A stretch of DNA of 64,000 nucleotides, from NCBI GenBank assembly GCA_964276515.1, contig OZ193910.1, positions 3,038,001-3,102,000 on the forward strand, read 5' to 3'. Source of the DNA: Gordius albopunctatus. Taxonomy: Eukaryota. Shown piece after piece: positions 22,994 through 63,200 of the stretch (within the stretch, counting starts at the first letter, position 1; each line of letters opens with the position of its first letter). Both the position numbers and the translations under genes were made by a program. The notes under the pieces were generated by a model. That model did not search any database, was not told the origin of the DNA, and saw only the letters and a program-made list of their open reading frames with translations.

Positions 22994-25900
22994 TTACCTT
23001 GATTTTAACTTTAAGTTATCTAATACTTTAAAAGGTTGCAAGTCTAAACAATTACTTTGGCGTCCTTCATCTGGTTGTGTATCTTCATCCTCTTCATCAA
23101 CAGGTTCTTTAATTTCAACTTGATTCATATTGCTTCTAAAAACTAGTTTTGTGAGTTGCATCGAATCTTTTGGTTTTTTACTAAATGCTACCTTGTGGCT
23201 ATTCTTTTCGTGTGAGTACATGTAATCAAAGTAAATTTCAATTTTCTTAATTAATTTTTCCAAAGATTCCGCTGTCGCGTCTAAGATTTCCTTCGTATCC
23301 TCTATACTCATCCGCTCACTATCCATGAGATCTGCATCGGGACTACCATTTTCTTCCGGTGAAACTTTCTCATCTTCGATACCTTTTTGTTGTGGTCTTA
23401 GTATAGATTCCACGTTTCGTGTTTTCGTAATGGAATGAGAGAACGAGATTGTATCAAGCTCGTAATTCACAAGATCACTGAAGGTCGCTTGTTTAGTGGT
23501 TTGAGTAGAGCTGCTTAAAGCACGACTCGGTGACATTCGAATGTCGGGTATAATAACAGGGGCCGGGATTTGGTTCGTTACTAAATTAATTGGGATATTG
23601 GGATTCACGGATGGGGAAGCATCACAAATTGGAGCAATGGCGGTCAGAGTTTCTTTCACAAACACTTTGTTTTTCTCCATCCATTGAACCTCTATTATTT
23701 TTTGGTGTCTCTCACATATTGACATAGGCGATTCTTGAAAGTTTGGTAGAGTTGAAAAAGGCTCATGGTCCTGCAACGGCATATACGTGGTTGAGTAGAC
23801 CTGATCATTTATAGGTTCTAAGTTGGTAACAGTTGCGATTCGTGGAGTCATCTCTGGTACAGATTCCAACATTTTAGCATTGGCTAGCTCTTGGATGCTC
23901 TGTTGCTTTTCGGCAATAATTTGTTCTATGTGGCTGATTATATTAAAAGGTATTGGCAATGGTCCTACCGCCTCTCTTTGTTGTTTTATATATTGTTCAT
24001 AATCAATCGGTTTGTTCTTAATCAATACCAATTCTTTCTGCGATTCGACTGGAGCCTCATATATTGTTTTCCCCCAATCAAGGCCTTCGTGATCATGATT
24101 TAATTTATCAGCTGAAATTTGGGGGTTAGAATTGTCAAAATCGTAGGTAATTTTACCCGTGGTTTTCAAACCACTAATTCTTTGTCCAAAAGAACTTTTG
24201 ATAGCGGGTTTAAGTCCCGCCATTTCATTATTTAACTCGGTAGTGGCACCAACGTCCGTCGACGTGGTTGAATTAATGGTTTTTTTTATTGGCAGAAATT
24301 TACTTGGCCCATCGATCATTGCATCTAGAGATTGTCTTCTTCGTTTTCCATACTTAAACTGATTGTCATAAGATATTTTGTCATTGCTGAATGTCCTTTT
24401 ATGTGTACTTTGCAGTTCGCCCGTCCTTGGCATAATTGCCAGGGAATTGTTTGGAGTTGCAATAATTGAAGAAGTAGGGCTCGAGCTTCGCATTGAACAA
24501 CTAGGTACATAAGATTTAGCCATGCTTAGTGAATTAAAGATTAATCTTGATTTTTCATCGTCATTCAATGAATCATCTTTTTTGGTTAAAGGAAGTTCTC
24601 TTTTTAAAGTCCAGTCTGTATTAGACAAAGATGTTGTAGGTGTATTTCGACAGATGGCCTGCTTCCCTTCTGCAGGTAAAGAGGTCGTCGAAGTATTTCT
24701 ATCAACCAACTCTTTCACAATGTCTTCTATCGATTGTTTTTCAGTTTGAGTAAAATCACTTTTTACTTCGTAGACTTCAACACTTTTAGGGCTTGTAATA
24801 ATATTTGTTTGCACTGAATGATTAGGATCAATAGAATCAGGCTGGGAAACATTTGATTTAACTTGTTTTAGAAACTCGTTTATTAGATTATTTATTCCAG
24901 CGAATGTTCGTCTTTCACATATATCAGCTATGTACTTAGGAAGTTGATCCATACTATCTTTAGCAACCAATTCGGGTTTGTCAGAGTCGTCCTTATTACC
25001 ACTGCTGCATTCATCTAAGTTTTCTTCCATCAATCTTTCGTTAACTGCGCTGTTGATCTGACATAAGAAAACGTCCCAAAGGTTCATTAAATTTTGAATA
25101 AGATTTTTGATGTCTACTATATCAGTGTCGGTAAGGCGCTCTTTCGAATGTACTAGGTTTGTTGAAAGATGTAATCTAATATCATCTAATTGCCCCTCGA
25201 TATTAATTTTAAACGAATGCAATAATACATTGGTAAATAAACTTAAACTTTCATTTATCTTGTTGCTATCTACCAAAATCCTTTGCTCTAAATACTTTTG
25301 AAGGTGAGAAACACCAAGTTCACCTTGTTTAGATATTAATTCTTTAATCATACCTTCCATACGTGGTTTTAAACTATCATTCATTTTTGATACATCATTA
25401 GTTAATTGCTCCCTCAGTGTATTTTTCAGTAAATTCATCTCATTCATCAATGATTTAAAGTGTTCATCTCTCTTTTGACTTTCCACCTTACCTAACTGCT
25501 CTACATGTTCCTGGAGACCAGAGTTAATAGAAATGACCGAAACTTTAAGATCTTCGAGTTTCGAAAAGGATTCTTTTTTTAATTCTCCGAGTTGCTCTTT
25601 TAAGCTAAATTTTAATTTTGCTATATCCTCCATTAGCTCTTTAATATTACACGTCCTTTCACTAGTTGACCATTCTATCGCTTCTTGCAATTGATCGATT
25701 TTAGAGTTGGTCTCACCTAATTCTTGCTTCCCTTTTTCTATTCTGCTACCTACCATGCATTTGACCTTGCTAACTGCTTCTCTTATTATATGTTGCTCAT
25801 TTATAAGGACATTAGCATTTTTTAAATTTCTTTTAATCATTGCCAAAATTAATTCTTTTGGCTGGATTACAAGAGCTTCGTCTGGACTGGGTGTGTATGG

Positions 25901-26929
25901 CAGTTTGTCATTCGGTATATGCCACTGGGTATGATCTAAATCGATTTGTTTCTTTATATCTCCTATGTCATTTTTGATCAATTCTAGACTTTCATGAATT
26001 GATGTGTAATCTACTCTGTGTATCTGAGATTGAGATACGTTCTGATCAGTTGAAGTATTCTCGGTATCCTATTATATGGAATATATATAGTCGCATTACT
26101 TTGTTTTCTAGTTTATTTTTATAATAAATTAATAAAGAACAGAACATACCTTAGAAGCTATTAGAGCTGTTGAACCTATATAGGAAGGCAAAGCATTTTT
26201 TAGATTATTTTCTGGAATAAAAAAATTCATATATTAAAAAATTGAGGGTAAAATGTTTTAAGTCATAATATTTATTAATGATGAGAGTTATTATAAACCT
26301 ATCAATGCCATTCCAAGATTATTTTGTGTTTCAGATCCTTCAACATTTGTTTTATTCCTAAGGTTCAACATATTATATTCGTTATTGGCACGTCTCAAAA
26401 CACCCAAAAAAGATTGGGTATAATCCATAAGTCTTGCAATCAAATTCTGCGTTATTCTCGGTAAAATTTCAATAGATTCCTCAAGACTCTGCGAACTGCC
26501 AGCTCTATCCTGGGAATTTTCATCCTCAGCTGTTTTGATCGTCAGCAATGTGATTAGACTCAACCAAAACCAGTCGTTTAAATTCTTTACCGAGTCGGAT
26601 AATCCTAGTAAATCAGCCCCAGTGCTTAATGGAGGTGCTAATGGTAAACTATTGATCCAGCCCCATGGTAATAGTTGACCCCTTGCCAATGACCAACATA
26701 GCCCGGTAAAAAATTGGAAAAAAATTTCTAACAGAGCCGAAGGTAGGAAAAAGGTGTGATAATAGGAACACGTTACGAAGCTTGAAATCCAATCCATACA
26801 TTGAGAAGGAGCTGAAACGAATTGGTATAACAAATCGATTAAAATATCGGGTATAGTATCACTGTTAGATCCTCCAGGCCAAAAAGCCTCGAATAACCAA
26901 GACAATAGTGATTTCGTAGGTATCATCAT
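22994..26929 (-). CDS. Large uncharacterised protein: hydrophobic N-terminus, predicted coiled coil, long Ser/Thr/Pro-rich disordered region
   Basis: Phase-consistent exons 26929-26299, 26175-26150 (26 nt) and 26068 to about 22998 (includes the 995-aa ORF), joined by GT-AG introns. No family recognised. Confidence 0.75.
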
Positions 26930-28281: not shown

Positions 28282-31200
28282 TTAAAATTCGGGTTTGTAA
28301 GATTCGTGAAAACCGTCGTATTGGACTCCCACGTCAAAGCAAACTTTAGCACCTCCTTCGGCGAGGGGTGACGACGACGACGAGAGTTGATTAACAAAGA
28401 CCCTCTCGAGGCTTATTTCGTTATTTTCGAGTGCTAAGCGCGACCTGGGGTTGAGTTGGGGAGATTCGGTCAACTTGAAAGAGGTGTACTCGTTAGAACT
28501 ATCGGGGGAGGAGGATGAGCATTGTCGACTGACACAGGCGGATGGAGCCCTTAACACACCATTTTTGGGGGAAGGGGAAGAGTGAAGGGGACGGGGTTGA
28601 TGGTGGTGCGTCGTATGATTCAAAAAAGCTCCAGCACTTTTTCTCCTAAATTTATGGTCGGTCGAACGGGAGTGGCCTTTGAGGAGGAGCGTTTTGTAAT
28701 GCGGGGCCGTACGACTGCCTGGGCCAAGTCTAAAGAAATCAGACAGAAATGTTAAATAAGGGTAATAATATGGTCTGGTAGGTAGTGTCTTTTGGTGATA
28801 TAACTTGCAGAGCCTTTTGGTATCACTCAATAAAAAACATATTTGAAAGACATGCCTCAATAGCGGATTTAGATTATGCCCTCCTACTAATATCCTATTA
28901 ATCCCAGTTGCATTGAACTTATATTTCACCTTGACCTTTTGCAAAGTTAAATTAAATTATAATTTAACTGCATTCCAACTAAAAGAATATTTGCATCTGA
29001 ATAATATTCATTATTTGCTGCTTATATTAAAATAAACAAGGGTTATTATATCCTGCCAAGCAAAATTTGATAATAGAACACAAGGGACTTTCAAAAGATA
29101 GTGGATGAAGAACCCACATTGAAAGTAAAAATCTTATTGACATTTATAATGAAAATCTTAAATTCCCCCACCTCTAAGTGTAAATTTTCCAAAAGGGATC
29201 CTCTAAATACTAACCCTCAAAAGTGTATGTTATAAAAGATACATTTCGTTTCTAACGAGAAGTGTACAACAGTCTTAAAGTCCAGCCCCAAAACAAGGTC
29301 TTTAACCATTCCATTTAAAGCCGCCGCAGAGTAAATTTCGAAAATACTGGTATACACTTACACACAGAGTAAAGCGATAGGCACACAATGACTAACCTAT
29401 CTTTAGAGTTGCCAATAGGCTCTTCCAAGTGGTCGGCTCCCAGGACGGGCGAAGATATTTTAGGAGTATCCACAGCTTTGGAATTATTGCTGCTATTCAT
29501 ATCGCGTTCTATGACGAACGTACTCATAGCACGAGCCCCGCTCCGGTTATTAACGTTGCCGGGCGATCTATAATTATGATGATGGTTACTTTGCGCCATC
29601 AAAACGCTGACTAGAGTCAATTTACGAGCCGGAGTCATAAACATATCTTTTATGGTCGAAGGTTCGGCCGGACTAGCTTGGTCCCGAAACGACGAATCAC
29701 GTTCTAGAGCCCTTCGGTAGAGGGCTTCCTTCCTGTAGTAATGGTGGAGCAGGATAGAAAGGATAAAGCATTCCAAAACCAGCAGCAAGTGGTTAAGTTC
29801 TACAAATGTGACGAAGGAGAACATACGTAAAAATCAAGATATGTTTAGTGGTAATGTCATAAAAAGAGGCAATGGCATGGGCGGCCAGCTGTCCCCCTCT
29901 AAATCCAAAAAATTGTAGAAACTTATTAAAATTATGGCTAAAATATCAAATAAAAGTCACTTTGCCTCTCCCTAAATCCAAACCTGGCTATGCCCTTGGG
30001 CAATGGCTTATAAATAAGATGGATCTATCAGAAAAGCTAATTTGTATTTGTTGACAAGTTGTAAGGCTGGATTGATCAACGAATTGTTAACTGTAAATAT
30101 ACCTACTTAAAAAGAATGGACAGCAAATAATTCTTTAAAATGTTTTATTCTTCTGTTTTAGTTTTAAAAGTAGTTTCTCATGTAGTCTCCTAATTTTCCC
30201 CTGCCTACGGTAAACCACATTTTTGGCTAGGTAAAAATAATATAATTTAGGAAAATTTTGCCTCTAAAAATACTTTGATACGAAATAGGATTAAAAAAGA
30301 ACAGGTGGTCCCATATTTCCGTTATCCTTTATTATAAAATATATTTAATTTTATGCCCTCTCTCCTTCTCACCTAGACCGCGGGTTTTTGTGTAGAATGG
30401 AGCAACGCAAGGCAGGATATCTTTGGTTGTCAGGAGATCTAGGATCGAGCCTTGCAAATTACTGAATATCAAGACGAGTTGGATGCTGATGAATTTCGCC
30501 AAAAGGTGATGTTCTTTCAAGTGATTTTTAGCGAGGCGAAACGTAACCACGAGGCCGTACATCCCGATTATCGTGGAGATGGACGTCATGATAGTGAGGT
30601 AAAGGTAGGCGTTAGCCAAATCGATCTGCCACATTAATTTTATTATCACACCACGTGTACAAAGATGTAATTTTATGAAGTTCCTAAAAATAGTAAAACC
30701 CTCTGAGGGGGTAGGCGAAGCTAGTAGTTTGACTTATGCCTCTCTCGAGCTAATTTAGCTTAGTTCTCCATTGATGTGATATTATGATTGCATCGAGATT
30801 ACAAAGCCAAGCCAAAAATTTATATAAATAAAGCATTGTTAGGCCAATGAACGATAGAAGCTTATGAGAGAGTAAAAATTTTAAAAGCTATGCATTTACC
30901 TAATACCAAGGATTTTAAATTAGATTTCGAGCCTTAACTCCGGCTTATAGTTAAGAGTAGAGTTGTTATATTGCTAACTTTCTTCAACTCCAGCTACCAA
31001 CTGCTCGAGTTTCTGCTCGGCCCTCGAGCATTTTTATATGCTACTGCTCTGCTTAGTGCACCAAAAGCGAGCACACATTGTGCTAACGCGCATATTAAGC
31101 AACTCAGTGTGTGTGCTCGCGTCTGGAGTTTGAAGAAAGTTAGCAATTTAACAACTCTAGTTAAGAGTAACATATTTGCATGGAAGGATCTAGCTGTTTG

Positions 31201-34200
31201 CCATTATACGACTATTCGAACTGACGATTAATTTTGTTTATATACTCTTAAAGATAATCTTGCAAATAACGATAAAATAATAATCATTACTAAAGCTAAA
31301 ACAAACATTTTGGAAATTTATAAAAATTGTGGTAGGTAATAGTTAAGAAGGTTACTTGGCCCGGTGTGTAGCTTCCGTCGGTCCATAGAACGGAAGCGAT
31401 AAATATGAGAAGGGGCCTGACTAAGGCAGTTTGAAATACGATTGCTTTGAGCCGAGTGAAATTTTTCCTGCGAATTAAGCAAAGAAAATTGGTGCATACA
31501 TAAAATGATCCTACCATTAAATTGTTTATTTAATGTAGCGTTCCCTTTAGTTTATGAATTAGCGATTTTATTCTGAAAAAAACGCCTTTTTAAAAAATGT
31601 GTTTACCGTATTCAAAAATTCCTTGTTTATGATAGGTACACATTGCTGTAAATATTTAATTTCTAAAATTTTTACCTATCGAGCTCATCGAGATCGAGTG
31701 TTTATAAAAGGTTAGTAAACAAAGTCCGCTAAAAGTTGCCAGAGATTACAAATTTATATATTGAATTGTAACCACATATCTAACTAGTTTTAAAAATCAA
31801 GAATTTATAAATAAAAATCAAATAATTCCTAAAGTACAAAATGTATAGAAAATTTAAAATTTTCTGTACAGGACCTTCTTCCCTACCCATTATGACGTGA
31901 TGACATAAAATTAGAAAGCGACCGTCATTTTTGTAAGATGACCGTTTCCGCTTAGTTTGCGCGCCATAGCATCGCAAAAAATGAAGTGAAACGACACATT
32001 TATATCGAGCCCGGAGGCGCCATTACTTTTGCCAAAACTGAAACGAATTAATAGGAAAGTAGTGATTAATTTCATAACGCCTTAGTTATTCCAGAAATCT
32101 ACGTTTTGTAAATTATAAGTAAATAAAAAAATAATCTATCTATTACATATTAGATGAGTTAATCCGACGAGGCCTTTATCGAGTCATACAGGCATAGAGC
32201 AAGTCGCGAAAAAATTGGTTTTGTTAGTGTGGGCGGGCGGGCTAATTTTTGGTAGTATTTAGGGATTTCAAAAAAACTCGGGAGGGGCAATCAAGTAGAT
32301 ATTAGTTTTTAAACATGGTTACGCAATATATTTTGGAACCTTAAATATTCATAATAATTTTATTTTAGTGTATATTATAGACGGTAAAGCAAGTTGAGTT
32401 GCGATATTAATTATATGTTTTTTATAGTTTATAGTATCAATCAATGAAGATGTATTCTACCTTTCTGAGTTTTACATTGCGCAAATCCAAAATTCAGATA
32501 TAACTTAAAAGAAATTAATCAATGTATGAGATTAATTAATCATATATTTCGATATTAATTATAAAATATTATATATAATATCATTAATTTAAACGATACG
32601 TCTTTTATGCAATATAGAATTCATAACCTTCAACCCGACGCGGACCCGAGTTTAAAAATTTTCAACCCGAACCCGACTCGATCCGAAAGCGTTTTTAAAA
32701 CATAATAAATAATCATTTGTTAATATTTTACCTTTCGTGATTCAACTTTAAATTGAATATTTAATTATATCTTTATGTAGTTAAATTTATAATTTACTTT
32801 ATAGACACTATAAACAATAATAAATACTCATTTGTTAATATTTTACCTTTCGTGATTCAGCTATAAATTTAAATTTGACTCCAAATTAAACGAATTAAAA
32901 AAATAGAAAAGGAAATTGATTTTTATACGAATGAATGATTATAATTAGTTATACAATTCGATATTGTTTTAAAAAAATTATAGATAATAACATTAATTTA
33001 ACAAATACTACGTTTCGTTCATTTTGTAATTCATATCCTTTGACCTCGACTCTATAAATCCAACCCGACCCGAATGCATTCTAAGATTTTCAACCCGAAC
33101 CCGGAACCCGACCCATGGGCCTAGGCAGAGAGGGGCGGCTGTCCCCTCTAATCCAGAAATTAGCTAAAATTTAATATAATTAAGATTTAAATCTTAAAAA
33201 ATTATCATTTTGCCCCTGTTAAATCATTATTGCCCCCCCCCCCACGGCTTATTTGCAAATGTTGTGATCATCACGAAAAAGCATAAAATGATTATTATTA
33301 CTTATCGACAAACACCATGGGTAGGCAGGGGCAACAACAAGCCAAAGGAGGACTTTGGAGCGGAATCGGCGTTTCCGAGAGTATGTCTAGCATGCAAGAT
33401 TTTCCTCCGAAATACTCTACTATGAGTTGGAAGAACTGAAATACGGAGATGGAAAGGTAGCTAAATGAATGAATGGTTGGAAGCAATCAATTTTCTATCA
33501 CGGAATCCTTCAAAGCTTTATTATTCGGCGACTAAGAAAAAGGGAGCAAAAGGCGTTAGTTTGTTCTTCGTATTTAGTCGACTAAAAACAAAAGGCGGTG
33601 CACCAATCGATACCCACCCATTTTCGCAACACTACCTTTACAGGTATGACGTGTATCGAAATTTAGATTTGTAAATTGTGCTAAAACAACCAAATTAAAA
33701 TTGAGCTCTTACGTTGCAATTGCAGCATTTTGCAAAAAATGATAAAGTTTGAATGAGGGCGGGGGGGGGGCACAATGGTGATTTGGAGGGGCAAAACGAT
33801 AAAAGTTCATTTTAACTTTGCTGACATATTTTAGAAATTTAGGTAGTGTGGGCCCTGCCTCCCCCTGGCTAGGACTATGATGTGCCCTACGTAACTATTA
33901 TAAAAGTTCGCTTTTTAGTATTATTTGTATTTAAAAGGTTGAAAAATAAGTTTCGTTACGTTTTCGCTCGAATATTCAATTTGGATCATGTCGAGAAGCA
34001 AAAATAGTGGTTTCAATCCTGGTTGGGGTTAGTTAGCGTCCAACAACAATATTTAAGCAAATTTTTAAGAAAATTCAAAAAATTTGCCCAGCATGGCTGA
34101 AATGTTTAACTTACACGGAAGCCACAAAGTCCACTAGGACACCCGCGCGAGGCACATAAATCCCGAGGAGAGACGTCATCGAGTATACCTGTATGGTAAA

Positions 34201-47296: not shown

Positions 47297-49131
47297 TCAG
47301 GTTAATAGGGTGTTAGCGGAATAAGTGTTTTGAGACAACTGATTTGAGTGAGCGGAAGTGAGGTGGGCAACTTCTTCATTTTGATAAGAGTGTGTGGGGA
47401 TTCTTGGACAGCGATTGGCAAAATGTCCTCTTTCACCACACTGTTGCATCAATGTTTTCAAAATGTAAAATAATTATAAAACAATGTTCTCACTAAACAT
47501 TATTAAGCCAATGGTGCTATTGAACTTATCATTGTCCAAAAAAATTATATAACATTTTTCCAAATTCAGAAATGAGAACATGCCAAATAACTATGCATTA
47601 AATAACCTAGTAACAATATTATAGGCAAGTGCTGCTGGTCCTTAATTTTTAAACCCAAATTCAAAATCATATCATTAAATATCACTAATTCACCGCTTAA
47701 TGTCATACATAGAGAATCTTATGATATAAATAGATTTAATTAGACTTGATAAATTCTTGTCCCAATATTGGATTAAATCAATAATACATCTAAGGTGTAA
47801 ATTTGTTGCCAAAAATATGTATAATTTTATGAAAAGGTAACTCACCCTAAAACATGTGATGTTATCCATATTTCTATGACCTGGATCTGAGACCTTGGTT
47901 CCCCCAAAATTCTTATATACAAATAATACCAAAACACATATTTTATTTAAGCTATATATAAAACTTAAAAAGGCAAAGGAAGTCATGCAATTCAAAATAA
48001 AAATATATAACTTTGAAGTATTTTTATTAACATAAATAGACAAAAAAATAAAAAATTAGGCTTCAATTGCAAAGAAAAATTGAATTATTATTAACAATAT
48101 ACAATAATTGAGTTGTAAATTTATTTTAAAAAATTGTTACTTTAGTAAGTTGATAGGATGGGAGAGGAATATGGATGAATGGTGCCTGAGAAAGTTGGGA
48201 ATGAGATGTTGCATTAGTGTTTGAGTCATTTTGTAGTTTTGAACAAAATTGTAGCTTATGCCCTAGCTCTCCACAATAATGGCACGTGATGGTCCTCTTG
48301 AGAGGTAAGTTACCAATCTGAGGCACCTCATTTAAGGTTGGTGCATCAAATTTGGGACTTAATGAAAAATAAACTATAGTATAAATCATTATAGATCATT
48401 ACTTACTGAATAAATTTACAAGATGGGCCATCTGGACAAAATCCATTTAAGTAACAGATACATATAACCCTTCTTACATGCCTATTCTTACAACTTGGAC
48501 CTACAAAATAGTACTTCTTTTAAATACATAATTAAACAGTTATAAAAATACAAAATTTACATAATTAGAGCTTTGTGTAAATTCTATATTTCATTTCATT
48601 ACCATGCCGACAAAAGCCTCTAAAATACCAAGGACACTCTTTTATTTTTGATTCAGGGTCAATATGTAAAAAGGGGCATTCTTTGTTATTACAAGCATCT
48701 ATAAAAAACAACCAATTAATTAATTTGTACCTTAGTATTATCTTACTAAATTTGGAATAGAAATAGCATTCTGGCATTTTGCTCATATCATACTCATGCA
48801 GAAACTCACAATCATCACCCTTTTTACAGAGACCTCTTAGCCAATGTTTACACACTACATTTTTATCACCCTACGTTTGTAGTTATTATATACATCTATT
48901 AAGTCACCTTAATATGACGAAATGGGCAGAGTTGACCTAAATTACACAATCCTGTATATTTGAAGGAATTACATATAGCAGCACCGGACTCTAAAGCATG
49001 TTATATTCATAATTAAATGTAATATTACTATCCATTCCAATAAAAGGTAATGATATACACCCGATCTGACTTTCCAAAAAATCCTCCACCTCAAAGCCCA
49101 TGTTACTAACGTTGGCAATCAAATCCTGCAT
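47297..49131 (-). CDS. CPSF4: Cleavage and polyadenylation specificity factor subunit 4 (CPSF30/Clipper), about 302 aa
   Basis: Exons 49131-49029, 48990-48908, 48870-48747, 48698-48603, 48500-48407, 48357-48141, 47893-47846 (acceptor could be 18 nt further upstream) and 47440-47297. Encodes MQDLIANV...LPFIGMDKSGAA, five CCCH fingers (CKHWLRGLCKKGDDCEFLHEYDMSKMPECYFYSKF) and two CCHC knuckles. Confidence 0.96.
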
Positions 49132-51110: not shown

Positions 51111-52272
51111 ACAGACTCTAAAACGCTTGGTTTTCGAAACAATCTCTGTCAATGACCATAATAGCCTCATAACTAAATTTTTCACCTCCATTCATGAGAA
51201 TCAACTGCATGTCAACACCAAATCTTAGTTTTCGGAGGAAACAATAACTCAAATCGAATCCCGCCATAATGTCTTCGAGGACAATTCTCTTAAAGGTAAA
51301 TAAATTTGGATTTAGACGCTCACAAAAAAGATAGAGGCCCATATCAAAAACGCCAAATAAAATTTCATATCTACAAACCATGACAAAACAGACAGCTCGC
51401 TCTAAAAGCACCTACTCCCCATACAAAATACTAAAAACTTTAACCACTAAATTTTCCAACACAATCACTGTTCGATAAGAAATATAATCATAATTCCAAC
51501 GATTCTTTAAATTAAACGATTGCCTGGAAGTAGCACTTCCGCTCTATTCTCACGGTTCCAACCCATTCCACTTACCTGGATATATTTAGAAATTATATTA
51601 CCTTTCACATTATCACATTATAAAGGTAGAGTTGGCCGGGGAGCTCTAATCTACTAAATTATCTGTGCTATTTTACACTACACTAAAATATATGAGGTTA
51701 AGTCTATTAAAAAACGATTAATGGCTTAATTATTGTAAAAATAGACCAAGTAAATATTTTGGTACATAATATGGTATTTCACACTATGATAGAAGCGTTT
51801 TTTTAAATTTAATTATATATGTGCAATTTAGTGAAAATCTCAAAACACGTATGTTTTCTTCAAAACTTTGTATTTTTTACACACTTTGATTTTTAAGAAA
51901 GAAAAGACTACAAAGTATATATGATACAGCAGATGTTATATTTATTCTACGTTTTAAAGATACGATACGAGCTGTATTTAATTAACGCGTGTAAGATCAA
52001 AAGGGGTATACAAACGCGTGGGTATAGAAGCGCGGTGGGGGGTGTGGGGAATCCGTAACTTTTGTATAGGGGATACGACAACTTTAATAAAATTATATGA
52101 GAAGAGAATATTCAACTTTCAATAAGCAGTTTACATTGATTTGATTAATTTATATCAGTTAATACATCTAAGTTTTAGATTAGAACAAAAATATTTATTA
52201 AATTATATTGCCTTAATTATAGCAGTAAAATTTGTGAGTAAATTATACACACAAATTTTAGTGCATTGTAAC

Positions 52273-53703
52273 TAGGGATGGCACAATGGGAATTTTCCAT
52301 TTTCCCGGGAAACTTCCCCGGGGAAAATTCCCCTAAAAAATATTTTTTAAATCAAATATGTATGATCTAATTTAAGTTATATATTATTTTAATTTACTTT
52401 AATTTCATATTTACCTCGTGGTAACCAATATTTTAAATATTTCCTAATTTATAATTTGTGAAAATTTGCCTAAATACTATTAGCATCTAGTTGTTAACTT
52501 AAAAGATTTTGCAATCTACACTAAAGTTAATTATCTCAATAATCAGTTAAAACAATATACCCTTATAGTTACATTAACAATTAGTTCTCTAGTGTAAAAT
52601 TCTTTCCATATAAGGTAAATTTACATATGCTTGTAAATTTAAAATATTTAGTAAAATCATTTAAATTTTATATTGCCATTTTACTCTAAATCTGAAAATA
52701 TTATATACCAACTTAATAGTAAGTATAAGTAATATTTAAAAAATATATCAACTTTTTATTTAACATTAGAGAATTTGCAATCTACACTGAAATTAATTAT
52801 TACAATAATCCTAGATAAGCATTTAAGTTATATTAACAGGTAAATTTACATATACTTGAATATTTAGCAAAATCTATTATATTTTTATTGCCATTAACTG
52901 TGAAAATATTTTTACCAACTTCAAATCAAGTAATCTTAAATAGATATTTATTTTATGCTAGTATTTAGTTTTTTTATATAGAAGTATTTGTTATATCTAA
53001 CTAAATTAAAATTTCTACATTTTATTTAAACTGAATTTACACACCATTTTGGTAAAAATAATCTGTAATCCTTTGAAAACAATAAATGTAAAAATTTAAT
53101 ATTATTAAGCTTATTTTTTTGACTGATAGTTAGTTTTTTTGACTAATAAATGCCAAGAAAAACATCTGACATTTGGAAACATTTTTCTAAACATTTATCT
53201 TCAAATAAGAAAGATTGTATTGCTGTTTGCAATTATTGCAATTTAAAATATACATTTCCAAACTCAACCAAAACGGCAAATCATATAGCTAAGTGACCAG
53301 ATTTTATAAAGGAAAAGAATTGTCAAAAAGTTTTCTTAATGCCCCCTCTCCACAATCATCAATTTGTGAGGTAATGCTTGATGTATGCCCTATACAACAA
53401 ACATCTGCTTCATGTGACCCAAAACCATCAACATCCAATATTATTAGTTACTTTGATAGCATGACCCAAACTCAGCAAGAGAAATTAGATGAAAAATTAG
53501 CATTGGCTATTTAATGATTTTCCTGATTTGCTTCTTTATATTGTTTGACTAATAAATTTTATTAATCTTAATCATACTCGTGAACATTTGTTTATACTAA
53601 TTTACCTGTCTTGCTCGTTATTTCCCCTTAATTTCTTGTTTTTTCCCATTATTTCCCGTGAATTTTCCCTTAAGCGAATTTCCCGGGAAAATATCCATCC
53701 CTA
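52273..53703 (+). mobile_element. Internally deleted hAT DNA transposon (1431 bp)
   Basis: TIR TAGGGATGG / CCATCCCTA, perfect 8-bp TSD attgtaac (52265-52272 and 53704-53711), subterminal ttcccggg repeats at both ends, a diverged internal duplication (about 52500-52940) and a transposase 5' remnant. Confidence 0.92.
53150..53514 (+). pseudogene. hAT transposase N-terminal remnant with BED zinc finger
   Basis: MPRKTSDIWKHF...AVCNYCNLKYTFPNSTKTANHIAK*, with TGA where the last Cys is expected, then after a frameshift ...IISYFDSMTQTQQEKLDEKLALAI. The catalytic region is missing. Confidence 0.8.
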
Positions 53704-53829
53704 ATTGTAACTTAATTTACTTATAAAGGAATATATACAAAGCTATTATCTTAAACTATATTAAAGAAAATCTATAGCAGAATAAAAATGTTTTAAAGTC
53801 AAATTTAGCGCGAATAATGCTTCAGGATA

Positions 53830-53941
53830 CATGGGGGGAGGGAAGGGCGGCTGCCCCCTCTAAACCCAAAAATTAAGTGTAAAATTTCAAAAAATAATCA
53901 TTTTGCCCCCCCCTCTAATTCCAATGCTAGCTACGCACATG
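53830..53941. mobile_element. MITE family A (short)
   Basis: catg...ctacgcacatg termini; flanks tcaggata / acaggata (7/8). Confidence 0.75.
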
Positions 53942-54709
53942 ACAGGATATACAAAAATTAGAGGTTAAATAATTAAGCAATTAGTAATTTATATAATTTT
54001 CTGACCTTTGTAATTCCGTTTATATAATCTCTGACCCGTTAAAAAAATCTCAGGCTCACCGGTGCCCGTTCCATTAATTGCTAAGCCCCTCCGGGTCCGG
54101 CCCGTTAAAATGTTTATGATACAAAGCCCGCCCGTACCCGGCGGTGGGCCAGACGTGTGCAAATAATTGATTGTGTTATTGATTTGTATTAGTGTTTTAA
54201 AAACAGCTGGGTTTTGTTTGGTCGACCTTTGGTTTTAGTTAACTAAACATAAACAAATTAAGGATTTTTGGGTGTGTTCTTATCTTAAGAAATTGATCGA
54301 AGTCATAACAACTTATTTTACGAATGTTAAATAAGGATCCCAGCTAGTTCAAATATGTAGATGATGTGATATTTAAAATATTCACCAATTTAATTCTTTT
54401 GTAATTTATGTTAATTTATTAAGCAATTAAAAAAATAAATGCTGAAATATGTCAAGAGCTGATATGAGATTTTCATAATGGCACCCGGGATGACTCCCGC
54501 GACCAAGACGAGATAAAAAACACTAGCAGTTACGGTTTTAAATAATGTTTGACAAGTTCAAAAAAAACATACCCATTAAAGATGGGTATAAAAAGTTATA
54601 AAAATCCTTAGAAATACAATCGATTGCAAATTCTGTTTAACGTTTAATTTGAGTATTAAAAAGTACAAAAGCTATTATACCACTCAATTAATAACAATTA
54701 CATTTTTTA

Positions 54710-57098
54710 TCAACTATTTGCGATAGTATTCGTAACAAATTTAAGGGAAAACAGCCTTTTTTCCAGGACGCATATTTCGTACATAAACTCTTCTAAGCTC
54801 TGTTCACTAAGGTTGGCCATCATTTCAAAAACTATAGTAAAATAGGAACGAGATGAGTTGGTCATCTCTTCGCCTCTCTTTTCTTTAGTGTAGTCCTTAA
54901 TAAACTGCTGAAAAGCTAATTTAAAAGGTCGCTTTTGCGAAAGGTATTTCACGTTGGGTAAGCGGTCGTGAGACTCTTTATTAGCCAAGTGTAGTCCTAG
55001 CAAGCGGTCAAACACGCTACCTATTACGAAGCAGGGATTATAGCGAGCTAAAGATTCGAGCTTAGCACCGGTTACACTTGACTCAGAGGTGATGGGTGTT
55101 ACTAGAATCTCTTTCTCGAAATTTCCCCGATTAGAGTTATACTCTAATGTAGAATCGGAGGCATTCGGTATTAAGCGCTCAAAGGCGGATGAGAGACGGG
55201 CTTTAAAAGCAGGCCTACCCGATACGTACTTCGTGGAGATGGTGGTTAGACTGTTTTGACTAGACATTAGTCGGTAAGTGGATAGGAGATCGCGGGCATA
55301 GAAGGCTGTATATAGTTGAGGAGTAGGACAATTGAGAGTGTTAGAGAAAGCGGGAACGCCGGAAGGGGGTATAATTACGTCGGATTCGCTCTGTTGCGAT
55401 TCAAAAGATTCCATATTTTTCCGACAAGGACATGAAAGAGTTTGGGTAAGAGTGGGAGATATGTAGTAGTACGCTTCCTGCGGAGAAATCAAAGTGAGAC
55501 TGGATACATCCAAAAGGTTATGCTCTTCCAATTTTGAAATCCAATCCCGCCACCAGGTGGCGAAGCAACAATCGCTGGTGGGCGGCATTAGGTTATTTTG
55601 AGTGAAGTGAGAGTGATAGGCGAGTTTGAGAGCGACGTACAAGTAGGACAAGGTTCTTCCTTCAAAATTGGGCATCAGCCTCGCAACTTTAACTTTGTTG
55701 TAGGGAGGATCTTCGAATCGTAGGTAAGCGCCATCTAGCGGCAAGACCTTTTGCGTTTCGGTGTATATCGAGAGAGCTACCCGAGTGACTTCGGCTATAT
55801 TTAGATTAGAAAAAATAAAAAAGGTAAAACAATTAAGGTGTACCTGGCAAGCATAACATATCGGCGTACGTGGAAATATTAGATGGTAAGTCGGGCTTTG
55901 GAATTTTGGTGGTAAGATCCATGATGTTACATAGCTGAAAACATGAGGCACGGATTAATTTAGTTAGCGGTATGGATTTGTGGATGAGAATTTGATTGTC
56001 GTAAAGCATAAATTTCATGTGCGACGGTAAATTGTCACTACTTCCAAAATAAGCTAGTTTATGTTCTTTTATCAGCCTTTAAATACATCTATTTAATTTA
56101 AAGTATTTGAGTAATTTACCGCAATAGATGAGACAGCTGATATTTTGGAAATTTGATAAACAGTAAACCGAGGTATATGAAGCATATATTGTGTACTAAG
56201 GCTTGTCTTTGAGTCAATAACAAATTTTCAATTTTTTTTTTGAATTTATAAGTTTTATTTTTTAAGGCAAAATCAATGAGGGTTGGGTCAATTTCGTCAA
56301 TAAAACTGGTGCAATATTCGTTAATACATTCACTTTGTAACTGGCAAGCATTATTAAGGCTCTGTTGTGAGTTTGTTGAAACTCTATTTTCATTTAAATT
56401 AATTGGATCCGATTGAGTATTAGCTTCATATTCCATAATAATATCCTTGAAAAGTAAGTCATAATTTGTCTGATTATCACTTTTTATAATATTGTCAGCT
56501 TCAGGTTGTGGATTAAATTCCTCTTTATGTTGTGGTGAGGGGTTTAGGCTATTTATATTATCCCAAGGCAACGGATTGACATTTGATTTTTTAAGTTGAT
56601 GGAGAAATTTTTTTGTAGTTTGCAGATCAAGATTTTGAATACAAACAGCTATATCTCTCAGATGAGGAGAAGGGCCAGGCTGAGGGTTAGATGTAAATGC
56701 TATATCTAAATGTATTTATTTAAGTGGAATAAAACTTAAATAAAAACTTTGTTTTGATAGGAAAACTTTAAATAGGTTAAAAACGATTGATTTAAAAACA
56801 GATGGGGCACCCATATCTACTAATTGATTGCATTGTTTCAATAAAAGTGTTAAAAAAGCTTCATGAAAAGTCCAAGGAAGTCCTTTATCAACTAGAAAAA
56901 CATTAGTTTATATAAAAATATATGCATACAATATTTATCCACAATATCTTTAGAAGAACTTGGAATAATTTGTGAAAATCCAACATCATCTGAATATTGC
57001 TCATAGATAAAGGGTAATTGGGTATTGCAATTTTCACAAAAATAATTTCCATCAATGCATTCAAAAGAGGTACCATGACAATGCTGACAAACTTTCAT
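54710..57098 (-). CDS. TAF1B: TBP-associated factor RNA polymerase I subunit B (TAF1B/Rrn7), about 738 aa
   Basis: Exons 57098-56930, 56891-56748, 56705-56120, 56076-55844 and 55794-54710, all phase-consistent (introns 38, 42, 43, 49 nt). N-terminal zinc ribbon CQHC...DGNYFCENC, then WTFHEAFLTLLLKQCNQLVDMGA, QLSHLLRLIKEHKLAYF and PNFEGRTLSYLYVALKL, in the order of TAF1B motifs. Confidence 0.85.
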
Positions 57099-57099
57099 T

Positions 57100-57345
57100 T
57101 TAAGGTAATGTATCAGGAAATCCTAAATCTTTGAAATCTTCTTTGGCCATTAAATTTTTATTCATGCGACATTCCAAGTAGCTCTTGGCTTCTTTTCTAC
57201 ATTTTGAATTATTTTGTTTGTTTTGTGACATACAGAGCATATATTTAATGACAAATTTTTTGCACAAATTGTTGTGATCAATGGGGAAACTACCATGATC
57301 TGGAGGTATTGTTTTAGCAATCTTTTGTTGAGTCACTGTTGACAT
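57100..57345 (-). CDS. COX19: Cytochrome c oxidase assembly protein COX19 (twin CX9C), 81 aa, single exon
   Basis: MSTVTQQKIAKTIPPDHGSFPIDHNNLC-x9-C...C-x9-CRMNKNLMAKEDFKDLGF carries the COX19 signatures PPxxGSFPxDH, YLECRM and LGF. The first ATG in this frame is at 57345; the ORF-track start at 57372 is a TTG. Confidence 0.95.
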   Translation of the reverse strand: MSTVTQQKIAKTIPPDHGSFPIDHNNLCKKFVIKYMLCMSQNKQNNSKCRKEAKSYLECRMNKNLMAKEDFKDLGFPDTLP

Positions 57346-57830
57346 TAGAATACAATAATTTATTGGCCTCAATTATATCAATATCTGATAAGGGTGGAAT
57401 TGAGTGTGAGTTTGACTGGACAAAGTATCGCGATTTAGAATCTAAAATATTTATTGTATGAGGCTAAAAATTTACCTTGAATTGTATTTAAGGAATTTAA
57501 ATGAGGCGTTATATAATAGTTCAAAACCGTGTATGTAAATAAAATCAAAAAGGGGAAACAACAAACGATCAAAGGAATTAAAAACGCCCAATATCTAAAT
57601 ATAATAATAATAATAAAAATTAGCAACCAACTTCTTGGGATAATAAGTAATTCCAAAATATTCAAAGATGTGGTCAGGGACAAAAGCCCATAATAAGTAA
57701 ATGCCTATATAACAAAAATGCAAATTAATATAAGCTATTTAATCTTACCAAAAACTAAATTTGAAACAATCCATAATACAAATCCATAAACAGCTCGTTG
57801 TGGGCATGGGGAGGGATTTGGTACATTCAT
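57314..57830 (-). CDS. PIGP: Phosphatidylinositol N-acetylglucosaminyltransferase subunit P (PIG-P), 133 aa
   Basis: Exons 57830-57749, 57704-57632, 57594-57476 and 57441-57314 (introns 44, 37, 34 nt). They splice to MNVPNPSPCPQRAVYGFVLW...YLLWAFVPD...GITYYPKKYWA...TPHLNSLNTIQD...IPPLSDIDIIEANKLLY...DC*, matching PIG-P motifs throughout. Missed by the ORF track. Confidence 0.93.
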
Positions 57831-58181
57831 AATTATTAAATAAATCTGCTAAAGTACATGCAACCTTAAACGTCGTTAACAAATGCTGTTGGACAATTTA
57901 TTAATTTGATGTTATTAATACAACCAAAATTTAATTCTAACATTGTCCTTAACCCTGACAGTAACAATAAATGAGAAATAAATTTTGAATAAAAAAGCTT
58001 ATCATCAGGTTATAAGCCTAAGGTAAAAAGAGTTATCATTTTCGGTCAATATAGTAAAGCGAAACTAATGTTTTGTGAATTAGACTAGCAATTGTGCATT
58101 ATTATTTTAATTTTCATATTGTAAAAAAATAATTTTGTCCACATTAAGACCAGGTTTCTACCACTTGTTAGAACCCATAAT

Positions 58182-58500
58182 CATAGATAGACTAATAAAA
58201 TCCTAGACTGCCGAACAGCTGATTTTTACTATTAAAATAATTCATACACAAAAATAGCTTCCATCTAAGAGGAAAAACTCAACAACAGGTAATATTTATA
58301 CTTCTCCATCTCCACGATAAAATATTTCAGAAAATAAAAAAGACTAAGCTTAATTTATAAAAGAACAAAAAATAAGTAAATTAGAACAATAAATTATGCT
58401 AAATTCTATTATTTGGTTTCGATTTCCCACAAAACGGCGCTTGCTATAATTCCTAAAAAATTGTCAGCTGTTCAGCAGTCTATGGTTTTATTAGTCTATG
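58182..58500. mobile_element. MITE with about 35-40-bp TIRs (CATAGACTAATAAAA...)
   Basis: atagactaataaaatcctagactgccgaacagctga at 58187 is the inverse of tcagctgttcagcagtctatggttttattagtctatg ending at 58500. No clean TSD. Confidence 0.7.
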
Positions 58501-59759
58501 ACTGTCCCATTATTTCCACGTTTTTCAGACAAACTTTATCTTTGTGGCGGTACTTGCAGCATTTGCTGGAGCAGAAGGATTAGGAACCACTAAATACAAG
58601 AGGTATTATGTGCGGTGTGTTAAAAATCACGTTTACCCACCGGGGGGCACCGATTCGCTAATATCTCCCCGACGGTCCAACTCCACAGGACCCCTACTAC
58701 ATTGATATCTCCCGGCCTCTCTACCGCTCCCGTTACAGAACTGTGTTCCTGCCAGTTTCACACATTGAGGGCAGATGCCCATTGCCTTAAATCTAGACCT
58801 TAGACCTAAAGCCCTTCAAGCTCTACGTGGACCCCTTTGGCTAACGATATTGTAGTCCCCCTCCTCCTATCGATCGCTCAGAAGGCAAATCAGGCTCATA
58901 TAGTGATCCCTAGACAGCTCATCTGCTCTGATAAGAAAGCCCGAAAAAACAGGATCCGGTCTAACCAATTTTGCATTGTGTTCAACGGAAATATTCACCC
59001 TACACCCTGACTTGATGGTATCCATATTTATGATATAAATATTTAAAACCTTTGTACATTACTCGTGTCAACTTTTTGCTAATTCCTATGTTACTCACGA
59101 CCCTAAAACTGTTGATGAAATTTTTTGCATTAATTGGAATAGGTTCTCAAAAATCTTAATTTTCCACATCTTTTTTACTCAGGCAACAACTTGAGGTTCT
59201 TATTGAATGATAAAACATTTTACCGACTCTTGGATAATTTATATTTTCGACGACTATATTATAGATCTTTATATTTAAACAATATGTCTTTTGTGATTTT
59301 GTTATCATATAAATAACCTTTTACCCATTAAAATTTCAATAAACTACGACTTCACCCAAGCTACCTACAGTTTAACAATTCACGAATCAATTTTAAATAG
59401 CTCGTTAATTATAATCAAGTCAAAATAAATAAAGGGAAACTAATTTAATGAATAAATGATTGTAATTAATTATACATTTCGCTATTAATTATAAATATTA
59501 TACATGATAGCAATAATATAAAAGGTATGTGTCTTGTATTTTGCGATGTAAGATTTCTAACTAGTGAACCGACTCTTTAAACCTAACCTAACCCTACTTC
59601 GTTTACAAAGTTTGGTATAAAAGCAAGGATACTAATGATAATAAAATTATCAAATAGCTAAAAGGTCAGCTAAAAAATACGTAAACGCGTTAGGCTATAC
59701 TGGCTTCCAAATACTCCCCAAACATTTCCACAATAACTTGAAAACGTGTAAAATGCATA

Positions 59760-60208
59760 ACAAGTGGAGGGATAGCTATATGATATCGATATACAAGATG
59801 AAAGGCGATATTCATGAATGTAAAAACTACAGAGGCAGAAAGCTTATGAGTCACACTCTCAAGGTATGAGGAAAAGTGATCGAAAAGTTTACAATTTATT
59901 TAGATTTATGCCGGAGAGGTCTACAGCAGATGCCCTGAACAGTGTTAGAATATTAATGGAACGGTTTAAAGAAAGGGAGTTGCACATAAGTTTCATCGAT
60001 CTAGAAAAAACGGTTGATAAAGTCTCTCGTACTTTAGTGTGGAAATGTCTTAAAGAAAACAATGTACCAGAATTATACGCCAGAGCAATAAATGATATGT
60101 GCAAGGGAAATAGAACGAACGTTAAAACGATTGTCGGGACTACAAAGGGTTTTGGCATCAACACTGGTGTCCATAAGGGTCAGATCTTAGTCCCTCCCTC
60201 TTCATAAT
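59760..60208 (+). mobile_element. Old RTE-clade LINE, left RT fragment (host of the nested insertion)
   Basis: Degenerate YKMKGDIHECKNYRG.KLMSHTLK, STADA, FIDLEK..DKV and GVHKG/SDLSPSLFI. Confidence 0.85.
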
Positions 60209-63200
60209 CTTCTTCTTCTTTATCAGTTATTTGGTCCCACATAGGTGAGGTTTGTTTTGATGAGTCTCTTCCATCTTGGCCGGGTTAGTGCCATGTCTTG
60301 ACGAATCTCTTTAGTTTCCATAACTTTATCGACTTGCCTTTTCCACGTGACACGGGGTCGTCCTCTTCCTCTCTTCCCCGGTATTTTCATGTCTAGCACT
60401 TTTCGATTTACGTCATCCGGGTTCCTTCTTAGTATATGCCCATACCACCTTAGCCGATTTTCGTTAATCATGTCCGCCATAGTTTGAATACCCATTTTTG
60501 TCATGAGAAAGTCATTCGTCATATGGTCGAGCTTAGTATACCCCAAGCTCCACCGTATCATTCTCATCTCCGTGGCTTGTAATAGCTTTCCTTCCGTGGT
60601 GTTTAATGCCCATGTTTCACTTCCATAGAGTAACACCGGTTTTACGATGAATTTGTAAACTTTGCTCTTCAAATATATTGGCATTTTCTTGTCGCACATT
60701 ACACCGGATATACTTCGCCATTTAAGCCATCCTTTTTGAATCCGGGCATTGATTTCAGTTGCGCAACCTCCCTCTTGATGTAGCATAGAGCCGAGGTAAT
60801 TAAACCTGTCTACTTTTGGGTACTTTAGGTGGTCATCCAGCGATGGGGTGCTTGTACCGTTCATTTCCATGTATACCGTTTTTTGATCGTTGATCTTTAA
60901 ACCATATCCAGCTAAGCGCTTTGACCACTTTTCTGCTTCTTCGAATACCTTCTCCCTTGTTTCCTCGCATAGTACTATATTATCGGTATATAGCATACAC
61001 CATGGCGATGGCTTTTGAAAGTCCCTCGTTATCGTGTCTATAATTCTATTAAATAAAAAGGGACTTAAAGCAGAGCCTTGATGTAATACAATATTATATT
61101 AACCCGAAAAGGTTTAGAGTCTCCAACTGTCGTCCTAACGCAAGAGTTTGAGGCTTCATAGATATTTTTCATAAGCCGTATATATTCGTCAGGGATATTT
61201 TGTTTCCTCAGGCACCACCATATTAAATCGCGGTAGACCGTGTCATAAGATTTCTCCAAGTCGATAAAAACCATATGTAGGTCTTTCCTCTTTTCACCAT
61301 ACTTATCCATCATTTGTCTTAGGGCGAAGATTGGGTCGATTGTGGATTTGCCGGCCACGAATCCGAATTGATTAGCCGATATTTCCACCTCGTTTTTCAG
61401 CCTTGTTACTAAGATCCTTTCCAAAAGCTTCAAGGAGTGGCAAGTTAGCTTGATACCTCTGTAATTGCCGCAGTCCTGAGGGTCTCCTTTTCCTTTGAAT
61501 AAGGGTATAATCGTGCTTGCTCTCCATTGATTAGGGATTCGCTCTTCCAATATCTTGTTAAGGAGGTTCGTCATGGTGGTGACTCTTTCTTCACGACATC
61601 CGAGCAATGCTTCCATAGGTATTCCATCTGGGCCATTTGCTTTTCCTTTTTGTATCTTGTTCATTTGTGTCCTAACTTCATCCTTCTGAAAGAGTTCGAC
61701 CATACTTATATTTGGCTCAATTTCGGTAAGGGAATCCTTGTCATTTGCAATATTCATAAGTTTCTTAAAATATCCTTTCCACCTTTCCATCACTTCCTTC
61801 GGCTTGAATAAGGTCTGACCCTTCTCGCTTTTGACTATTTTAAGAACTCCGACATCGCTACTTTTCTTCTCCCTTATCTTGGCCAATTTGTACATAAGCC
61901 TATCGCCCCCTTTATGATTCAGTTTGTTTGCCATCTCGGTGTACGCAGCATTCTTCGCTTTTGCAACGGCCTTTTTTGCGGCCCTCTTTGCGTCCCTGTA
62001 CTCTTGATAATCCTCCGACTTTTTTGATTTATGCCACCGTCTATATAGATTTTTCTTTATTTCGATGAAATCTTTAACCGATTGATCCCACTACCATAGT
62101 TCCCTATTCATAGCTTTGCCTCCTTTGGTCTGTCCTAGAACACGAATCGCTGTTTCCTTAATGTCCTTAGATAGCGTCTCCCAATCTTCGTCTACGTCCC
62201 TTTGCAACTTCCTTGCACCCAAGAGTGACGGGGCTTTTTGATGGTATTCTTCGTTCGTCGACGTATCCTTTAGCTTTTCGTATCGAATTCCAGGTTCATA
62301 TACCTTTCTTCTCTCGGGAAATACTCTTCTGTCAAGATCCATAACAAGGGGACGATGTTGCCTGGCGATTTCTTCTCCCGGTATTACTTTGCAATCCTTG
62401 ATACTCCATAAGTCCTTTCGCCGTATAAGCAAATAGTCGATTTGACTAAAATGCTTCCCACTTCTACAGGTCAAAATATGATCTTCGCGCTTTTGAAAAT
62501 AGGTGTTAACGATTGCCATGTCATATGCTTGGGATACTTGGAGAAGTTTTTCCCCTTCTTTGTTCTTCAGACCATGCCCATAGCCTCCATGATTGCGTTC
62601 ATACCCGAGGCGATCTTTCCCTACGTGAGCGTTGAAATCGGCCCCAATAATTAGCCTTTCTTCCTGTCGGATTCCTTGTATTTCCTTTTCCAATGATTCG
62701 AAGAATATGTCTTTCTCTGATTCCGAACACCCAATTTGGGGAGCATACGCGCACATAACGGTTAGGAGGCCCCCTTGATCCGCAATTTTCACCCACATTA
62801 GCCTGTCGGAACAACTTTGACTTCCACCACCTTGTCCTTGAACGATTCGCTTAGAACGATACCGACCCCGTTTCTACGATTTGGTGACCCACTGTAGAAA
62901 GGCTTGTATCCTTCTCCTAAATCGCGAGCTTTCGTTCCGTTCTACCTCGTCTCTTGTAGGCAGGCGATGTGTACCTTTCTTCTTTTTAGTATCTGTGCGA
63001 CCTCGATGCTCTTCCCCGTTAACGTTCCCACATTCCAGCACGTAATTCGCATTCTTTTCACAACTAGTTTCCTTAACCGCCTTCGTTGTGAGTTGGGCAG
63101 TAACCCTAGTGTATTTTTCACATTGCACGGGCGGGGTATGCAGTGCGCGTCGTTTGTGGAGGACGCCCTAGCCTTTTCTTGTAAAATCTCGTTTGAAACT

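Follow-up and report, generated by a model that had tools for sequence, protein, structure and literature searches.

How are three unrelated genes expressed when they follow one another on the same strand with zero non-coding bases at the first junction and one at the second? This question is raised by a 64,000-nt stretch of the horsehair worm Gordius albopunctatus (assembly GCA_964276515.1, contig OZ193910.1, positions 3,038,001 to 3,102,000; hereafter the window, to which all coordinates refer), in which PIG-P, a subunit of the GPI-GlcNAc transferase, is followed by the mitochondrial factor COX19 and by a large open reading frame (ORF), here called gene 3, that probably encodes TAF1B/Rrn7. 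Our analysis confirms the geometry as real: three intact genes abut, the first two overlapping by 32 nt and the last two lying 1 nt apart. As an explanation we lean, at somewhat better than even chances, towards a single unsplit mRNA that would start at a promoter upstream of PIG-P and feed all three proteins. Judging from its anatomy, the locus likely works like the polycistronic mRNA loci of fruit flies; the gene combination is new, while its kind is already known from these insects.

Re-deriving the ORFs reproduced both junctions to the base as the first-pass annotation had placed them, namely the overlap of PIG-P (57830-57314) with COX19 (57345-57100) and the start of gene 3 at 57098, with the single base 57099 as the only spacer after the COX19 stop. 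Its further claim, that the ORFs use three frames and form no in-frame fusion, also held, as PIG-P, COX19 and gene 3 start in frames 0, 1 and 2, respectively, when counted in spliced coordinates (default splice). PIG-P opens with the ATG at 57830, is interrupted by GT-AG introns of 44, 37 and 34 nt and contains no internal stop, and its overlap with COX19 encodes a 9-residue tail beyond the conserved PIG-P end, as judged by eye against the fly protein. Gene 3 has introns of 38, 42, 43 and 49 nt and, once spliced, an uninterrupted frame of 738 aa; intron 2 could also be cut at other in-frame positions, and at intron 3 an open frame needs closure at 56077, the nearer acceptor leaving a stop. Along the cluster, ORF sizes rise from small and small to large (133, 81 and 738 aa; Table 1). 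Alternative splicing that would fuse neighbours in frame was also considered and rejected, since every acceptor on the 11 PIG-P/COX19 and 8 COX19/gene-3 paths scored -1.3 or lower, which is the level of the exonic background; the acceptor matrix was derived from 14 introns of the window, and true sites, left out in turn, scored above 2 in 11 of 14 cases.

Table 1. Features of the PIG-P/COX19/gene-3 cluster and its immediate flanks (window coordinates; UTR, untranslated region; MITE, miniature inverted-repeat transposable element; o/e, observed-to-expected ratio).
Feature	Position	Strand	Remarks
PIG-P (GPI-GlcNAc transferase subunit P)	57314..57830	-	133 aa, 4 exons
PIG-P exons	57830-57749, 57704-57632, 57594-57476, 57441-57314	-	
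COX19	57100..57345	-	81 aa, intronless, twin CX9C
Gene 3, probable TAF1B/Rrn7	54710..57098	-	738 aa, 5 exons, N-terminal zinc ribbon
Gene 3 exons	57098-56930, 56891-56748, 56705-56120, 56076-55844, 55794-54710	-	
PIG-P/COX19 dual-coding overlap	57314..57345	-	32 nt; COX19 in +1 frame
COX19 stop, one base, gene-3 start (TAA-A-ATG)	57096..57102	-	
AUG-free 3' half of PIG-P	57346..57594	-	6 CpG, o/e 1.23; possible internal promoter; post hoc, weak
AATAAA in COX19 coding sequence	57157..57162	-	candidate end signal for a PIG-P-only mRNA
ATTAAA	54643..54648	-	~60 nt past gene-3 stop, then U-rich; candidate poly(A) signal of the unit, inferred
Presumed promoter and 5' UTR	57831..58186	-	356-nt single-copy stretch from MITE to PIG-P AUG; function inferred
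MITE-like repeat	58187..58499		313 nt; 36-nt terminal inverted repeats, 92%

The tight packing is not a product of the assembly. A 4008-nt contig from sequencing run X1 spans 54226-58233 with 7 substitutions and 0 gaps, and a 675-nt contig from run X2 (56794-57468) crosses both junctions with 0 differences; since contigs of two runs thus cross the junctions gap-free, the collapse that the first-pass annotation had named as a way in which its proposal could fail is largely refuted. Both runs stem from one study, and either may be the source of the assembly itself; their contigs keep the introns and thus represent DNA, which is uninformative on transcripts. Depth in X1 was 200-297 in all 14 bins over 54403-58140, whereas the neighbouring repeat bins on both sides reached 16,000-155,000, and the cluster is therefore single-copy, without a high-copy repeat inside its 3.7 kb and flanked by repeats, just as the earlier statement that no transposon interrupts it would have it. 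The accompanying description of the other genes as lying 1.3-20 kb apart in transposon-rich DNA stood with regard to distance, these genes being kilobases apart and within that range (the start of a CPSF4-like gene, at 49131, lies 5.6 kb below the cluster, with a TMEM184-like and a ~1,500-aa gene more distant), and its transposon-rich part is backed by depth over 52000-60000 only. Under random placement, with the genome size and gene number of Gordionus, a rough calculation expects ~0.01 such triples per genome.

Profile matches place the first gene in the PIG-P family, as three of its four exons match Pfam PIG-P (PF08510) in profile order (exons 1, 2 and 3 at positions 1-17, 19-41 and 43-80, with E-values of 0.081, 1.1e-6 and 2.6e-6), each singly below the 39.3-bit cut-off and with summed scores of ~70; exon 4 gave no Pfam match. 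COX19 carries a CHCH domain above the Pfam cut-off (29.3 bits) and retains all 32 invariant columns of our alignment A1. All five of its database matches were of COX19 type, the best being a Gordionus protein (CAK9301546.1; 74% identity over 81 aa), to which it was sister with support 100/99 in a tree of 21 rows picked from the matches, a grouping that points to a nematomorph as the likely source of the window. This was the only relationship that the tree settled, and it contained no insect row; transfer of the cluster from an insect host was considered and set aside, as COX19 groups with the Gordionus protein in that tree. For gene 3 we share the first-pass name TAF1B as highly probable, on the strength of motifs in exons 2, 3 and 4 and at the start of exon 5, which we take to be TAF1B-like, and of a sub-threshold match to Zn_ribbon_RRN7 (E 0.051, 13.7 bits), one of 9 weak zinc-finger matches; the name was confirmed by no search or profile. 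Remote searches with single exons of the 738-aa protein returned, in Pfam, the PDB, two protein collections and an atlas, no match for the TAF1B cyclin-fold core, the atlas matching generic zinc-ribbon clusters only. With exon 3 a protein search gave 437 candidates, none at E 10, and with exon 5 it gave 0 of 1.84 billion at E 0.001, while a single-sequence structure model of the last exon reached a predicted local distance difference test score (pLDDT) of 34 and was unusable. A search with the PIG-P exon-2 frame yielded 1 candidate, none at E 10, and as it found PIG-P of no species it was a weak search. Among the three genes only COX19 found a Gordionus protein in these searches, which gave it no neighbour there, and the missing matches of PIG-P and gene 3 may reflect search weakness or cistrons missed in annotation. 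The packing argument is independent of the name of gene 3. As a separate observation, gene 3 changes in composition along its length, with G+C at third codon positions (GC3) of 0.22 and few CpG in codons 1-300, and GC3 of 0.42-0.48 with a CpG o/e of ~1.1 thereafter (window 54710-56076), for which candidate explanations are that a methylated domain stops there or that the 3' half was replaced; 8 of its 9 coding substitutions lie in the last exon.

What this geometry means for transcription depends on where messages could end. A PIG-P transcript must end past 57314, within sequence that has to remain uncut for COX19 and gene 3, which makes a shared transcript the most economical reading; and since an end for PIG-P or COX19 is available only within the next gene, a transcript from the upstream promoter would likely reach the end of gene 3. 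The AATAAA at 57162 precedes the COX19 stop and its use would thus destroy COX19 messages, and with 6 AATAAA hexamers in its 3.1 kb the cluster is no richer in them than the window at large, which has 2 per kb. We regard it as quite probable that COX19 and gene 3, at least, are transcribed together. For the trio as a whole, transcription would proceed from one promoter above PIG-P and the spliced mRNA would stay in one piece, shorter isoforms possibly coexisting with the full tricistronic form. The single pre-mRNA proposed in the first-pass annotation is thus partly supported as the most economical reading, one that fits with PIG-P and COX19 both being obligately dicistronic in flies, and needs amendment in that shorter isoforms from internal promoters, the rule in flies, may occur as well.

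In such a message PIG-P would be made by ordinary scanning from the cap, and for COX19 and gene 3 we propose leakage combined with reinitiation, as has been suggested for fly polycistronic mRNAs. Ribosomes slipping past the PIG-P AUG would translate short out-of-frame ORFs, resume scanning and reinitiate at COX19, whereas access to gene 3 would come through reinitiation at TAA-A-ATG, the point where every ribosome in the COX19 frame stops, or alternatively after short out-of-frame ORFs ending ~60 nt upstream. The low output of this scheme would suit three low-abundance factors. PIG-P has no internal in-frame methionine in 132 codons (P ~0.045 against two window ORFs, post hoc) and would therefore set no trap for leaked ribosomes; Wall et al. 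2005 reportedly, going by the title, dealt with upstream cistrons lacking in-frame AUGs, a description that PIG-P fits. Its five out-of-frame AUGs open ORFs of 5-29 codons, all closed by nt 113 of the coding sequence, and between the last of them and COX19 lie 257 AUG-free nt. Given the protein sequence, the absence of AUGs here is unremarkable (probability of none 0.73), and the stretch thus permits reinitiation without proving it. An unusually stable fold was found at neither junction (z -1.6 and +1.6 against mononucleotide shuffles).

Several observations weigh against a single message translated in this way. COX19 has 4 internal methionines; the COX19 first cistron of flies also has internal methionine. 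Out-of-frame AUGs number 6 in PIG-P (COX19 start included) against 3.5 expected, and 3 in COX19 against 3.1 expected from 5000 synonymous shuffles; they are thus undepleted, which disfavours leaky scanning alone, as in green algae, and 14 AUGs precede gene 3, counted from the PIG-P start. The termination upstream ribosomal binding site (TURBS) has an 18S-complementary core, UGGGA, and no TURBS-like motif was present in the last 120 nt of the PIG-P and COX19 ORFs, nor was there an Asp-rich tail before either junction; the distance between stop and start, which in TURBS-driven reinitiation lies within ~20 nt, is 1 nt at COX19/gene 3 and 32 nt at PIG-P/COX19. The trio was not seen in metagenomes, where neither PIG-P nor gene 3 was found near COX19 in any of 80 loci (tblastn, E 1; most loci short or distant), which were retained after 132 of 325 pattern matches had proved to be COX19 relatives. 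Finally, 114 of the 159 dicistronic loci of flies also yield monocistronic isoforms and 45 are exclusively dicistronic (PMC4528330; like the other papers cited here, drawn on in excerpt), and the 3' half of PIG-P contains a patch rich in CpG.

These last points lead to the alternative that fares best, in which PIG-P has a promoter of its own and a COX19-TAF1B dicistron starts from a second one, located within the 3' half of PIG-P, with COX19 in its usual position as first ORF before a long partner. We hold this to be unlikely. In the patch (57594-57346) 6 CpG stand where 1.3 would be expected (Poisson P 0.002; codon-shuffle P 0.017), and with CpG o/e values of 0.26 in the CPSF4-like gene body, 0.17 in COX19, 0.14 at the start of gene 3 and 1.29 in the region upstream of the CPSF4-like gene, it resembles the latter level and may mark an internal promoter; it comprises only 6 CpGs, however, and was found post hoc. 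Directly above the COX19 start lie 345 nt of ATG-free genomic sequence, and COX19 is the first ORF before Ppcdc from flies to crab and stands 25 nt before a flavoprotein ORF in one metagenome locus (L005). Position -3 is a pyrimidine for each of the five AUGs in the COX19 frame and an A for gene 3, but the protein largely dictates these letters, and the rule for -3 may not apply in the host, as the CPSF4-like start has C at -3. Moreover, PIG-P transcripts would still have to end within COX19 or run through as tricistronic RNA.

That the three genes are separate and monocistronic, with promoters and UTRs inside the coding sequence of their neighbours, strikes us as improbable. Possible ends for PIG-P and COX19 mRNAs are offered by AATAAA at 57162 (152 nt past the PIG-P stop) and 56720 (in intron 2 of gene 3), and 45 of 159 fly loci have monocistronic forms of both genes (PMC4528330); yet these hexamers occur at background density, use of the one at 57162 cuts COX19 before its stop, and a gene-3 promoter would fall in CpG-poor COX19 (o/e 0.17). 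The genome of Gordionus, with 288 Mb, 64% repeats, 10,320 genes and a BUSCO score of 71.6% (10.1101/2023.06.26.546503), is not compact, and as the genome surrounding the cluster is not compact either, nothing forces separate genes to overlap.

We consider slightly more improbable still a leader-spliced operon without intercistronic DNA, of the Ciona or spliced leader 1 (SL1) type, in which a given pre-mRNA would be turned into one of two messages, the upstream or the downstream one. Spliced leaders are used by nematodes, presumably the sister group, and the strong acceptor of PIG-P intron 3 at 57442, the only strong one above the COX19 AUG that could serve COX19, precedes that AUG by 96 AUG-free nt; in five metagenome loci (L003, L004 and L006-L008), moreover, a pyrimidine tract and AG stand 8-16 nt above the COX19 AUG, in gaps of 24-92 nt. 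However, the coding sequences overlap, no AG occurs from either upstream stop to the next start that could act as the trans-splice acceptor of a Ciona or SL1 operon, and ahead of gene 3 the highest acceptor score is -1.3, a value that 21% of 267 exonic AGs reach. Operons of the SL2 type have a gap of ~100 nt with a poly(A) signal, a U-rich tract and an unpaired acceptor, whereas the junctions here measure -32 and +1 nt. Our literature searches found no paper linking Nematomorpha with a spliced leader. The candidate tricistronic unit of the first-pass annotation is therefore not supported as an operon in the leader-spliced sense, given the coding overlap and the lack of an acceptor before gene 3. 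An assembly artefact or decayed genes are hardly credible, for although 6 of 9 coding substitutions in gene 3 (window against the two runs) change the residue, a hint that its 3' half is weakly constrained, both junctions are spanned gap-free in two runs, three frames are open through 7 introns and COX19 keeps the 32 invariant columns of A1.

The metagenome loci, from 24 of which 106 neighbouring ORFs were listed and 24 hand-chosen ORFs scanned, show which company COX19 keeps elsewhere. In 4 loci, two of them near-identical, it is followed by a PPCDC-type flavoprotein at gaps of 11, 25, 56 and 216 nt, and the downstream ORF lies 0-56 nt from COX19 in L005, L007 and L008 (flavoprotein/PPCDC-type) and in L025 (mitochondrial carrier). 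A KIN17, rhodanese-domain or CCDC174 ORF lies 24-92 nt above COX19 in 5 loci, with an acceptor-like AG in the gap. Since its neighbours are tight and varied both in flies and in these loci, COX19 appears to belong regularly to tight clusters while its partners change. Among individual loci, the COX19 stop of L025 (1570-2727) abuts the start of a 300-aa mitochondrial carrier (0 nt), with a TBCC ORF 239 nt upstream, while KIN17 (92 nt) and a rhodanese-domain ORF (24 nt) stand directly above COX19 in L003 and L004, with a pyrimidine tract and AG in the gaps. L006, L007 and L008 share a CCDC174-COX19-PPCDC cluster with acceptor-bearing gaps of 39-75 nt before COX19 and gaps of 11-216 nt after it, and could possibly represent a leader-spliced operon that ends in an unsplit dicistron.

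All host genes placed in the window are on the minus strand. The CPSF4/Clipper-like gene (47297-49131) encodes CCCH fingers and zinc knuckles in six modelled exons with introns of 37-102 nt, and it has a CpG-poor body and an 8-codon upstream ORF above its start. Further off lie the ~1,500-aa gene (21928-26929), which has a 1,024-codon exon, coiled-coil-like and Lys/Arg-rich parts and no clear Pfam family, and exons similar to TMEM184/OST-alpha (28285-31529). Repeats include a broken RTE-type long interspersed nuclear element with endonuclease and reverse transcriptase across three frames (59866-62873) and the remnant of a BED-finger transposase (53150-53514). Capture of the cluster by a composite transposon was rejected, as the flanking repeats are unrelated to each other, and so was a hidden fourth, Pcc1-like ORF above PIG-P, of which there was none in three frames (Pfam was negative on the one 47-codon frame tested). 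No structured RNA in the window matched Rfam.

Literature searches found no description of this PIG-P/COX19/TAF1B locus, and those on hairworm polycistrons or leaders returned none for nuclear genes, the papers from one of them concerning mitochondrial or unrelated topics. Nevertheless, the trio is less novel than first claimed, as FlyBase R6.04 lists 7 tricistronic and 2 tetracistronic loci besides 159 dicistronic ones (Crosby et al. 2015, PMC4528330). If the single-message reading is true, unsplit polycistronic mRNAs extend to the hairworm phylum and to a repeat-rich genome where compaction does not explain them, and small genes stay polycistronic while swapping partners and rank, which bears on the origin of such loci. 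The TAA-A-ATG junction with its 14 upstream AUGs would also lend itself naturally to tests of reinitiation that follows long ORFs in cellular mRNAs, for which the distance rules are called unknown in the consulted part of a 2023 review. In addition, the locus is a warning for annotation, as models with one gene per transcript may miss cistrons, and the BUSCO score reported for Gordionus is 71.6% (10.1101/2023.06.26.546503). A bolder synthesis, in which the horsehair-worm trio of conserved, essential proteins is translated from one unsplit mRNA by reinitiation after full-length ORFs without TURBS, COX19 and PIG-P are permanent, partner-swapping passengers of polycistrons, and overlooked loci explain some of the phylum's reported gene loss, seems rather doubtful to us.

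Among known systems, the operons of Ciona without spacer and the SL1 and SL2 operons of nematodes resemble the hairworm locus in having unrelated housekeeping genes head to tail with almost no spacer, but in Ciona the end of the upstream mRNA abuts a trans-splice acceptor past the stop, whereas here coding sequences overlap and no acceptor follows the stops (PMC1488885). With the termination-reinitiation cases of calicivirus, influenza B TURBS, SART1 and human CASQ2-type overlaps (PMC10275272, PMC3923131) it shares a stop and start within a few bases at the second junction and a start above the stop at the first; unlike TURBS, it has neither the motif nor an Asp-rich tail, and its backward distance of 32 nt exceeds the 20-30-nt TURBS range. 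The bicistrons of green algae, which are read by leaky scanning (Gallaher et al. 2021, PMC7896298; PMC11892635), likewise combine a short first ORF, a short inter-ORF distance and small mitochondrial factors, but algal upstream ORFs are short of internal AUGs (PMC11892635), whereas out-of-frame AUGs are undepleted in the hairworm.

The closest likeness is to Drosophila, whose cases are supported by transcripts, whereas the hairworm locus is described here from genomic DNA. CG6241, which we take to be the fly TAF1B, did not occur, nor did TAF1B by name, in the 12 supplement files on fly polycistrons that were searched. Fly PIG-P (CG14550) comes second, after the Pcc1-like CG42498, which it overlaps by 34 nt, on an mRNA that is always dicistronic (PMC4528330, PMC2276209), and the fly COX19-like CG42496 is the first ORF before Ppcdc, at an 18-nt gap and conserved to crab (Hayden and Bosco 2008, PMC2276209; PMC4528330). 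Order therefore differs, with PIG-P first here and second in flies, and COX19 in mid-cluster before a 738-aa gene. What the two have in common is PIG-P and COX19 themselves, unrelated partners, an overlap below 40 nt (34 in the fly, 32 here), gaps of 0-1 nt, as in the 1-nt cases CG34314-Rad1 and CG33932-Rpp20 (parts of File S1 of PMC4528330), and small ORFs ahead of a long one. The four-ORF CG9865 locus, with a putative mannosyltransferase and two twin-CX9C ORFs (PMC4528330), also puts a glycosyltransferase-type ORF and twin-CX9C ORFs on one message, and the hairworm cluster, with its separate, non-fused ORFs on one strand and junctions of -32 and +1 nt, lies within the range known for loci of this kind.

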